IMG/VR virus record: IMGVR_UViG_3300034355_001150
Location: 1-64,000 of that record
From: a virus
DNA: 64,000 nucleotides
Reading direction: 5' to 3' (one strand)
The translations under genes and the position numbers were made by a program. Position 1 is the first letter of the stretch, and each line of letters starts with the position of its first letter. The notes beneath the pieces were generated by a model. That model was not told where the DNA came from and made no database searches. It saw only the letters and a list, made by a program, of their open reading frames with translations. Of this stretch, positions 56,020-56,677 are shown in pieces.

Positions 56020-56632
56020 GGATAGTGAGATTTGAGATTACCTCACTTCGGGAGGATTGTGCTGGGTTTATGACAGCCCCCTTTCAGGGGACAATCATAA
56101 TCTTCGGTTGGGACCGGAGGGATACAACAGGTAGGATTTTTTTGAACTCTTGGACGGGGGGCTCGCACCCAACCCCGGTACCTACTGCGACTTTCTTATT
56201 AAGGGATTCCCTGGCGTTAATTTGGAATTCCCAGTCCTTCATCAAATAATGGTATTACTTGAAACAAGTTCAATAGACGATTGATTACTCAACCTCAAAC
56301 CTATTACAGTGACGCAAAATTCCTTCTCCATAAGGAGAGGATTTTTAAAGGCATCCAGACACGCGATGGACTGGGTAGTGCGCCAAGGCTTGGATGCGAC
56401 CTCCAAAATTACGTTCCTCCACACAGCAGAGAGGCATTCCGTTGCCGAATTATCAGAGGAGCCGGCTATCTCCAAAAATCGCAGTGGGTGCCAGTTTTGT
56501 TTCCCACTCTGGCAAGTGGTTTGTAACGCTAGTTTAAAGGGCACCCGGTTACCTGGAGTCCACGGAGTAAGCTCTACCGCGAGGCGACGGTAATGATAAT
56601 CAGATTATCTGCTTGCCCCGTCTGAACAAGCA
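56020..56632 (-). ncRNA. Large (~600 nt) structured non-coding RNA candidate
   Basis: GC-richer intergenic island without a credible ORF; own promoters; several stems closed by GNRA loops on the minus strand; H-type pseudoknot at about 56489-56519. Confidence 0.75.
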
Positions 56633-56636
56633 CTTT

Positions 56637-56677
56637 TATTTATACACAATACTACGCTTGTTCAGGAATCACGTCAA
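56637..56677 (-). promoter_or_regulatory. Tandem early and late promoters for the ncRNA
   Basis: TTGACG-N17-TAGTAT (56649-56677) and TATAAATA (56637-56644), flanked by a CTGAACAAGC/GCTTGTTCAG inverted repeat. Confidence 0.75.

Follow-up and report, generated by a model that had tools for sequence, protein, structure and literature searches.

Polynucleobacter-1 (RF01718) is an RNA motif of the Burkholderiales and of fresh water, entered as 'cis-reg: y, switch: ?' in the table of the survey by Weinberg et al. (2010, Genome Biol 11:R31), and within the literature searched its name occurs in that 2010 survey only. Other points of comparison are the large ornate RNAs GOLLD and ROOL, treated in a cryo-electron microscopy study (PMC12286853), and the candidates of 29–151 nucleotides (nt) presented in a 2023 structured-RNA survey of IMG/VR (PMC10690425). 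Here we describe an RNA encoded on the minus strand of a 64,000-nt stretch of viral DNA (the window), which comprises the first 64 kb of the 89.8-kb record IMGVR_UViG_3300034355_001150. The RNA lies in a gap between two protein genes, at 55780–56686. It is non-coding and conserved, with a covariation-supported fold that contains crossing helices, and it stands as an independent gene, not as the leader of a conserved one. The gap very probably holds a real structured RNA belonging to a sister family of RF01718, a level of confidence that applies to its family identity as a structured RNA and not to its mode of action. What the present analysis contributes is the size of the whole RNA, its 3′ domains, where it occurs in phages, and a lineage-specific 5′ domain.

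Relatives in phages and bacteria

Neither BLAST against 50,697 phage records nor nhmmer against 80 ClpP-anchored IMG/VR loci gave a match, and the matches from BLAST against 16 whole jumbo-phage records did not exceed 37 nt, with E values of 0.12 or worse. A 27-nt match seen twice came from one phage recorded twice and was set aside as chance. Anchoring the search on the neighbouring 297- and 127-amino-acid (aa) proteins, or on an alignment of the four relatives of the 297-aa protein, led to no viral or metagenome loci. A 19-mer from the RNA occurred in no viral contig, and 18-mer matches in 29 metagenome contigs were rejected as chance, BLAST extending them to at most 23 nt in seven contigs and finding nothing in the others. 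Three covariance models, each built on the window sequence singly, covered the central part (R1), the 3′ part (R2) and the 5′ part (R3) of the RNA. R1 matched positions 93982–94146 of a 214-kb jumbo-phage record (G001; 18.9 bits), inside a 584-nt gap free of open reading frames (ORFs), while R2 and R3 found nothing in 15 other records or at the G001 locus. Pairwise alignment of the window with G001 revealed common blocks and two compensatory pairs within one hairpin.

A two-block pattern drawn from this pair, TCTGMTGTGTG-N30–46-GCACTACC, recovered 36 IMG/VR loci on 35 contigs of 4–300 kb, of which 34 were judged real; the other two (L156 and L158), which lack every other conserved block, were rejected as chance. 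A stricter three-block pattern returned G001 alone. In bacterial genome contigs the two-block pattern occurred in 83 stretches, and the 80 that were fetched divided into 41 real loci, counted as such at an nhmmer E value of 2.6e-14 or better, and 39 chance matches. The real bacterial copies come from at least 20 Polynucleobacter genomes and from Limnohabitans, other Burkholderiaceae, Dechloromonas and Rhodoferax, with further copies among the Alphaproteobacteria in Rhodobacteraceae, Sphingomonadales and Erythrobacter; one bacterial strain has three copies. One IMG/VR contig of 36,926 bp carries the RNA pattern at both ends (L136 and L157, at 821–3279 and 35182–36926, about 34.4 kb apart), which points to a phage genome of ~34 kb, circular or with terminal redundancy, that bears the RNA. 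The presence of the RNA in a genome of this size means that the family is not confined to jumbo phages.

The gap in the window, 907 nt long, is its longest stretch without an ORF of at least 110 aa; the longest ORFs within it reach 100 aa on the minus strand and 94 aa on the plus strand. Codon-usage scores lie between −0.60 and −0.88 per codon in all six frames, compared with about 0 (−0.16 to +0.08) for the true frame of the five neighbouring genes scored. Recoding was considered and dropped, as reading TGA or TAG as a residue opened no long convincing frame in the gap. Pfam gave no credible match for four gap ORFs, the one match listed, ANXA2R (E 0.054), falling far under the cut-off, and across 69 family members no reading frame is conserved through the invariant block on either strand (1–151 codons from stop to stop). 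A first-pass annotation of this DNA had proposed a large, highly structured non-coding RNA read from the minus strand, with no ORF in the island supported by a Shine–Dalgarno sequence, and the covariation described below and the lack of a conserved frame bear this out. It had also noted that the island is GC-richer, which holds against the flanks (GC fraction 0.445–0.515 over 56000–56699 in 200-nt windows, compared with 0.30–0.40 beside it) but not against the window as a whole, where the mean is 0.41 and structural genes reach 0.55, so that the GC content of the gap is unexceptional.

Fold of the RNA

The elements of the RNA in the window are as follows.

56041–56470, minus strand: conserved core of ~430 nt with two domains, common to the 34 IMG/VR and 41 bacterial loci (alignments A6, A7 and A9; conservation profile)
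56310–56466, minus strand: 5′ domain, built like the Polynucleobacter-1 motif (alignment A7, covariation, weak RF01718 match)
56466–56463/56447–56444, minus strand: helix P1, its register set by eye (MAFFT shifts it by one column)
56442–56440/56413–56411, minus strand: helix P1b
56434–56429/56422–56416, minus strand: helix P2, with the near-invariant loop UCUGCUGUGUG at 56430–56420
56407–56402/56394–56389, minus strand: helix P3
56385–56379/56316–56310, minus strand: long-range helix enclosing GCACUACC, P4, the GGAUGCC junction and a hairpin at 56341–56321
56374–56371/56358–56355, minus strand: helix P4
56041–56309, minus strand: 3′ domain of subtype I (alignment A9, covariation, mapping onto the window)
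56217–56213/56175–56172, minus strand: pseudoknot pairing a loop with a strand, ACGCC/GGGU
56185–56181/56135–56131, minus strand: helix GUAGG/CCUAC
56169–56168/56159–56158, minus strand: short G-C stem
56100–56068, minus strand: strong hairpin (pairing probabilities 0.94–0.97)
ending near 56041, minus strand: tail CACAAUCCUCCCGAAGUGAGG
56471–56640, minus strand: 5′ extension with three local hairpins and a candidate H-type pseudoknot at 56519–56488

For the 5′ domain, RNAalifold applied to alignment A7, which holds 28 distinct sequences (the window and 27 phage loci), gave 32 pairs, and compensatory double changes occur at 22 of these. The aligned cells form pairs in 94.6% of cases compared with 78.0% in shuffled alignments, and cells with double changes number 157 compared with 43.6, none of 500 shuffles reaching the observed value in any of five measures; in controls with the pairing partners slid by 1–3 columns the pairing falls to 29–46%. 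One U.G pair is invariant (28 of 28 sequences) and one G.U pair occurs in 19 of 28, both of which would be mismatches if the other strand folded, identifying the minus strand as the folded one. The minus strand also folds better than the plus strand (z −3.68 and −2.63 respectively), and the earlier placing of the RNA on that strand is upheld. Of the 32 consensus pairs, 27 form in the window as aligned, the missing five being those of P1, and four P1 pairs (GCCG with CGGC) form in the window after a one-column shift made by eye. The 3′ domain occurs in at least two subtypes within the family. Its structure for subtype I, the subtype of the window, was derived partly with RNAalifold and partly by drawing from member L149, over 16 sequences; pairing reaches 84.5% compared with 70.6% in shuffles, 21 of 31 pairs show double changes, and there are two crossing interactions.

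The fold read earlier from the single sequence coincides only in part with the conserved one. Among the pairings that it listed, GTAGG/CCTAC is supported (helix 149–155 with 207–213) and the hairpin TTATGA..CCCCT-GAAA-GGGGG..TCATAA is retained in relatives. For GGGT-GCGA-GCCC a short G-C stem does exist at that place, but its loop is not of the GNRA type in relatives, and GGTTGGG/CCCAACC finds no counterpart among them. The supposed tetraloop G-GCAA-C is actually the 3′ strand of P1, and GCATCCA/TGGATGC is incompatible both with hairpin P3 and with the GGAUGCC junction, which is near-invariant. Two long-range helices of the single-sequence minimum-free-energy structure were discarded as mis-paired, CCCAGUCC/GGACUGGG (probability 0.99) and CCUUGGCG/CGCCAGGG, as they clash with P4 and the long-range helix of the family.

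The 5′ extension of 170 nt is confined to this phage lineage, the R3 search finding it at none of the 69 family loci. Its local helices have single-sequence probabilities of 0.80–0.99. In most family members a −10-like TATACAGC, noted by eye, lies ~8 nt before P1, which suggests that the usual family RNA starts at P1 and that the RNA of the window starts further upstream. Contigs of four lake or freshwater runs, aligned to the region, show constraint at the strain level. Over 56041–56896 they differ from the window at 4 of 373, 4 of 313, 1 of 126 and 4 of 513 positions, compared with 15 differences over 509 positions for the genes alongside; the spacer downstream of the RNA differs at 18 of 272 positions plus a 19-nt deletion (55799–56070) and at 16 of 360 positions (55799–56158). 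The extension is as conserved among these near-identical strains as the core, with one listed difference, at 56601. Five substitutions are listed for 56041–56640, three of them in predicted loops, and the remaining two (56335 and 56152, the partner of the latter assigned by eye) turn a G-C pair into G.U on the minus strand.

Polynucleobacter-1, other catalogued RNAs and gene context

At gathering level no Rfam family matched anywhere in the window, and a permissive scan of 55700–56800 (E up to 10) gave four chance-level matches only. RF01718 matched the minus strand at 56307–56470 with 15.1 bits (E 1.3; cut-off 37), and a plastid group II domain-5 model matched the plus strand at chance level (14.2 bits, E 6.9). 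GOLLD, ROOL, OLE, HEARO and raiA were absent at E up to 10 in 55700–56800 and at gathering level in the window; models of RNase P and of group I and II introns found nothing beyond chance. ARAGORN located no transfer RNA (tRNA) or transfer-messenger RNA (tmRNA) gene in the window, the Rfam tmRNA models had no match, and inspection of the RNA by eye showed neither a tRNA-like domain nor a tag frame that ends in the typical way. These scans agree with the first-pass annotation that hallmarks of tmRNA, RNase P and introns are missing, and they speak against the membership of ROOL or GOLLD that it had offered. Its alternative, a new class, fails in the sense of one without relatives, as the family is sister to RF01718 by its sub-threshold matches, a collinear 3′ domain and DUF6641.

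Full-length matches to RF01718 below threshold were obtained for L142 (27.4 bits), L165 (24.3 bits) and the window. Polynucleobacter-1 and the present family share the order of helices, with P1, P2 and P3 followed by a long-range helix around CACUAyCC, a short hairpin, GGAyGCC and a further hairpin. This order is seen in the full-length model alignment of L142 and is formed by the window sequence, and habitat and hosts are alike, namely Burkholderiales and fresh water. A genuine RF01718 copy (L263, 86 bits) occupies a 555-nt ORF-free stretch of a Polynucleobacter genome, at a locus separate from that of the family copy. Of 26 family members compared with it, the window not being among them, 9 have a 3′ domain that aligns collinearly with its part beyond the Rfam model (E 2e-14 to 8e-6), and the copy is adjoined by a divergent DUF6641 gene, as are 27 of the 41 bacterial family loci; the genuine locus thus appears to have a homologous 3′ domain and has a divergent DUF6641 as in the family. 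The differences are equally clear: the P2 loop sequence is another; the Rfam model measures 141 nt, whereas the conserved family RNA has ~430–500 nt, with a second domain of at least two subtypes; family copies lie mostly on phage contigs and not ahead of one conserved gene; and the window alone has the 170-nt 5′ extension, which is absent from Polynucleobacter-1. As 20 bacterial loci gave no RF01718 match, it is the 3′ domain that supports the link, together with the architecture and the gene context. We read the family and RF01718 as sister clades of one RNA of ~430–500 nt, the front of one clade being what Rfam models, and the window, being under the RF01718 cut-off, as a variant rather than a member. 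The candidate lists of the 2023 survey (PMC10690425) may hold fragments of the family RNA.

GOLLD often adjoins tRNAs. Like GOLLD and ROOL, the family RNA is hundreds of nt long with a multi-helix pseudoknotted fold, occurs in phages or prophages and in lake metagenomes, and has no assigned function; in contrast to them it matches neither model at E up to 10 and is without neighbouring tRNAs. Within 1.2–1.5 kb of the RNA at 36 viral and 41 bacterial loci ARAGORN found no tRNA and, as the only other hit, a tmRNA beside four viral loci. There (L137, L139, L145 and L151, on phage or host contigs) a circularly permuted tmRNA of beta-proteobacterial type, with the tag ATAITNEAYALAA and 121.8 bits to RF01850, lies ~110 nt 5′ of P1, accompanied by a weak cspA-thermoregulator match and a redoxin gene. 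The tmRNA resembles the family RNA in length and adjoins it in this one sub-lineage, whereas none of the 41 bacterial loci has a tmRNA within 1.5 kb.

In phages the RNA always lies in an ORF-free stretch of at least 450 nt. No neighbouring protein family recurs in more than 6 of 35 phage loci, the window counted, and the largest lies on either side of the RNA. Neighbours include free-standing homing endonucleases, of HNH or His-Me type (a cluster of five loci), SegE GIY-YIG (three) and NUMOD3 (one), as well as the auxiliary genes NAPRTase, GTP cyclohydrolase I, UvdE and redoxin. A ClpP gene is found 0.8 kb upstream of the RNA in the window. In bacterial islands the RNA is found with DUF6641, DUF6876 and another small protein, adjoining other integrases, and a short tyrosine recombinase is present at 14 of the 41 loci, mostly co-oriented and 0.3–0.5 kb downstream. 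DUF6641, DUF6876, PF20346 and PF21781 had no mention in the literature searched. PADLOC found no defence-system match among the island proteins except PDC-S14 (E 1.5e-49), to the gene downstream of the genuine RF01718 copy (L263 1–1095, minus strand), which may be island cargo.

The genes and signals that flank the RNA in the window are the following.

56687–57070, minus strand: gene for a 127-aa protein, flanking the gap
56677–56649, minus strand: TTGACG-N17-TAGTAT, a sigma-70-like promoter candidate with 9 of 12 consensus matches
56644–56637, minus strand: TATAAATA, an octamer named in the first-pass annotation
55780–56040: AT-rich, poorly conserved spacer between the RNA and the next gene
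55929–55952, plus strand: perfect 10-bp hairpin followed by TTTTTT, which reads as an intrinsic terminator
55840–55813, minus strand: promoter TTGACT-N16-TATAAT, with 11 of 12 consensus matches, for the 297-aa gene
54886–55779, minus strand: gene for a 297-aa protein, flanking the gap downstream of the RNA

The upstream promoter candidate lies within a 10-bp inverted repeat (56665–56656 with 56631–56622). Both it and TATAAATA are present as reported earlier, but the dedicated early and late promoters, and the expression throughout infection, that had been read from them rest on motifs at chance frequency: promoter-like sites in 55500–57200 number five where 5.2 are expected, and TATAAATA occurs four times in the window where 6.84 are expected, on which ground a T4-type late promoter was dropped. 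Taken together, the varied neighbours, the near-consensus promoter of the 297-aa gene and the fast-evolving spacer before that gene argue that the RNA is its own gene and not a leader. The terminator-like hairpin of the spacer is on the plus strand though the long genes there are all on the minus strand, and a second hairpin (55911–55929) stands just ahead of it. The segment 55772–55848, which holds the promoter of the 297-aa gene and a leader of ~40 nt, has a summed contig depth far above its surroundings in three metagenome runs, many unrelated contigs end at its edges, and a matching cassette next to the G001 RNA has eight, five and two copies in three other jumbo records. It looks like a repeated promoter cassette common to these phages.

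The source record, which is estimated to be 27% complete, is that of a large lake-water phage with ClpP, GroEL and very large virion proteins; near-identical DNA is present in lake and freshwater metagenome runs, and the runs listed as containing it were 24 DNA runs and no RNA run. Every gene across 52927–59449 is encoded on the minus strand. In the 297-aa protein a serine-rich repeat and hydrophobic segments accompany a C-terminal FtsK-gamma-like winged helix, the last from a weak match, and its relatives exchange their N-terminal half; the gene beyond it (52927–54879) encodes a 650-aa protein with seven DUF4116 repeats. In a contig of run X7, position 56808 is joined to 57403 with 30 other letters between, so that in this relative the 113-aa gene is missing, along with most of the 127-aa gene (56809–57402), and the RNA comes directly after ClpP. 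These two genes are an insertion or deletion between strains, and to the eye they look like paralogues of each other.

Alternative explanations and significance

In the reading that we favour, the gap would encode a free-standing, structured minus-strand RNA of ~600 nt. The last ~430 nt (56470–56041) would constitute a divergent member of a widespread two-domain family, carried by freshwater phages that range from ~34 kb up to jumbo phages and, in freshwater Beta- and Alphaproteobacteria, by islands with integrases, while the first ~170 nt (56640–56471) would be an extra domain of this phage lineage. Several points weigh against this reading. The RNA is predicted from DNA sequence and its ends are putative. 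The family is patchy, the strict pattern being present in 2 of 17 ClpP-sharing jumbo records and in none of the four complete ones. The window scores well below the RF01718 gathering threshold (15.1 and 37 bits respectively), 20 bacterial family loci gave no match to RF01718 at E up to 1, and the profiles of the family 5′ domain and of the subtype-I 3′ domain miss the genuine RF01718 locus. The family alignments were made with MAFFT and are not structural, the 3′-domain slid controls (37–47%) are flattered by the part drawn from L149, and the fold of the 5′ extension is a prediction without covariation support. Neither the record of the window (~27% complete) nor four other jumbo records yielded a DUF6641 or DUF6876 gene in a search in which the control genomes gave no match either; with the record incomplete and the control search silent, this absence says little.

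The classification of Polynucleobacter-1 in the table of Weinberg et al. (2010) favours a cis-regulatory leader of the downstream gene, riboswitch-like or an attenuator, and so do the mostly co-oriented recombinase at 14 of the 41 bacterial loci and the phage neighbours, which are mostly co-oriented with the RNA. Such a leader is nevertheless quite unlikely, as 260 nt of poorly conserved spacer and an 11/12 promoter precede the 297-aa gene, the downstream genes vary, the largest common family reaching 6 of 35 phage loci, and 430–600 nt with crossing helices far exceeds known leaders. We consider it very unlikely that the RNA represents an uncatalogued and unrelated large class, or a distant member of GOLLD or ROOL. 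No Rfam family, RF01718 included, reaches its cut-off in the window or on the RNA at 40 family loci scanned (only a neighbouring tmRNA matched), and the family sequence profiles pass over the genuine RF01718 locus, but GOLLD and ROOL are not listed even at E up to 10, three members have full-length sub-threshold RF01718 matches with the same helix order, and the genuine locus has the collinear 3′ domain (E down to 2e-14) and the DUF6641 neighbour.

The remaining two explanations do not invoke an RNA gene. That the conserved stretch acts as DNA, for example as an origin of replication, a site of recombination or attachment, or the target of a homing endonuclease, might be supposed from the tyrosine-recombinase islands of bacteria and the homing endonucleases that flank phage copies; it is highly improbable, given that such sites need no compensatory Watson–Crick or G.U changes on one strand only, that the invariant U.G and frequent G.U pairs mark one folded strand, and that known att or ori cores are far shorter than the 430 nt conserved here. 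A protein gene that is decayed or unusual, whether frameshifted, recoded or very small, with incidental structure, is hardly credible. Although ORFs of 81–100 aa overlap the region on both strands and an antisense ORF that clusters by BLASTP lies over the RNA at 22 of the 41 bacterial loci, this clustering follows from conserved nucleotide sequence alone, no frame is open through the invariant block in 69 members, codon usage is flat in six frames with no credible Pfam match, and coding constraint would not be expected to yield the compensatory changes seen at 22 of 32 pairs of the 5′ domain and 21 of 31 pairs of the 3′ domain.

Returning to the structured RNA of the RF01718-sister family, its transcript may be stable and act in trans during infection, as a scaffold with a protein partner or as a catalytic RNA, a view to which we incline without giving it quite an even chance. 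The near-invariant single-stranded elements, namely the P2 loop UCUGAUGUGUG, GCACUACC and the GGAUGCC junction strands, would be its likely functional surface. In bacterial islands the divergently encoded DUF6641 protein is a candidate partner, whereas none was identified in this phage. More tentatively, it is possible that the Polynucleobacter-1 motif is the front third of a two-domain pseudoknotted RNA of 430–600 nt, which would represent a new large phage-borne class comparable to GOLLD and ROOL, moving between freshwater phages, jumbo phages among them, and integrase-bearing islands, sufficiently conserved for homing endonucleases to colonise its gene, and acting in trans during infection as a ribonucleoprotein or ribozyme with lineage-specific additions, of which the 170-nt 5′ extension would be one.

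To our knowledge few large structured RNAs of unknown function exist, and those characterized so far have each revealed new RNA biology. The present analysis turns an orphan gap into a family with dozens of members, a covariation-supported fold, two 3′-domain subtypes and, in DUF6641, a candidate partner. The entry in Rfam is cut short and leaves out the phage clade, with the consequence that phage annotation keeps calling these genes empty gaps. Several named Polynucleobacter and Limnohabitans strains bear copies of the RNA and provide cultivable carriers in which the role of Polynucleobacter-1 becomes testable at the bench.

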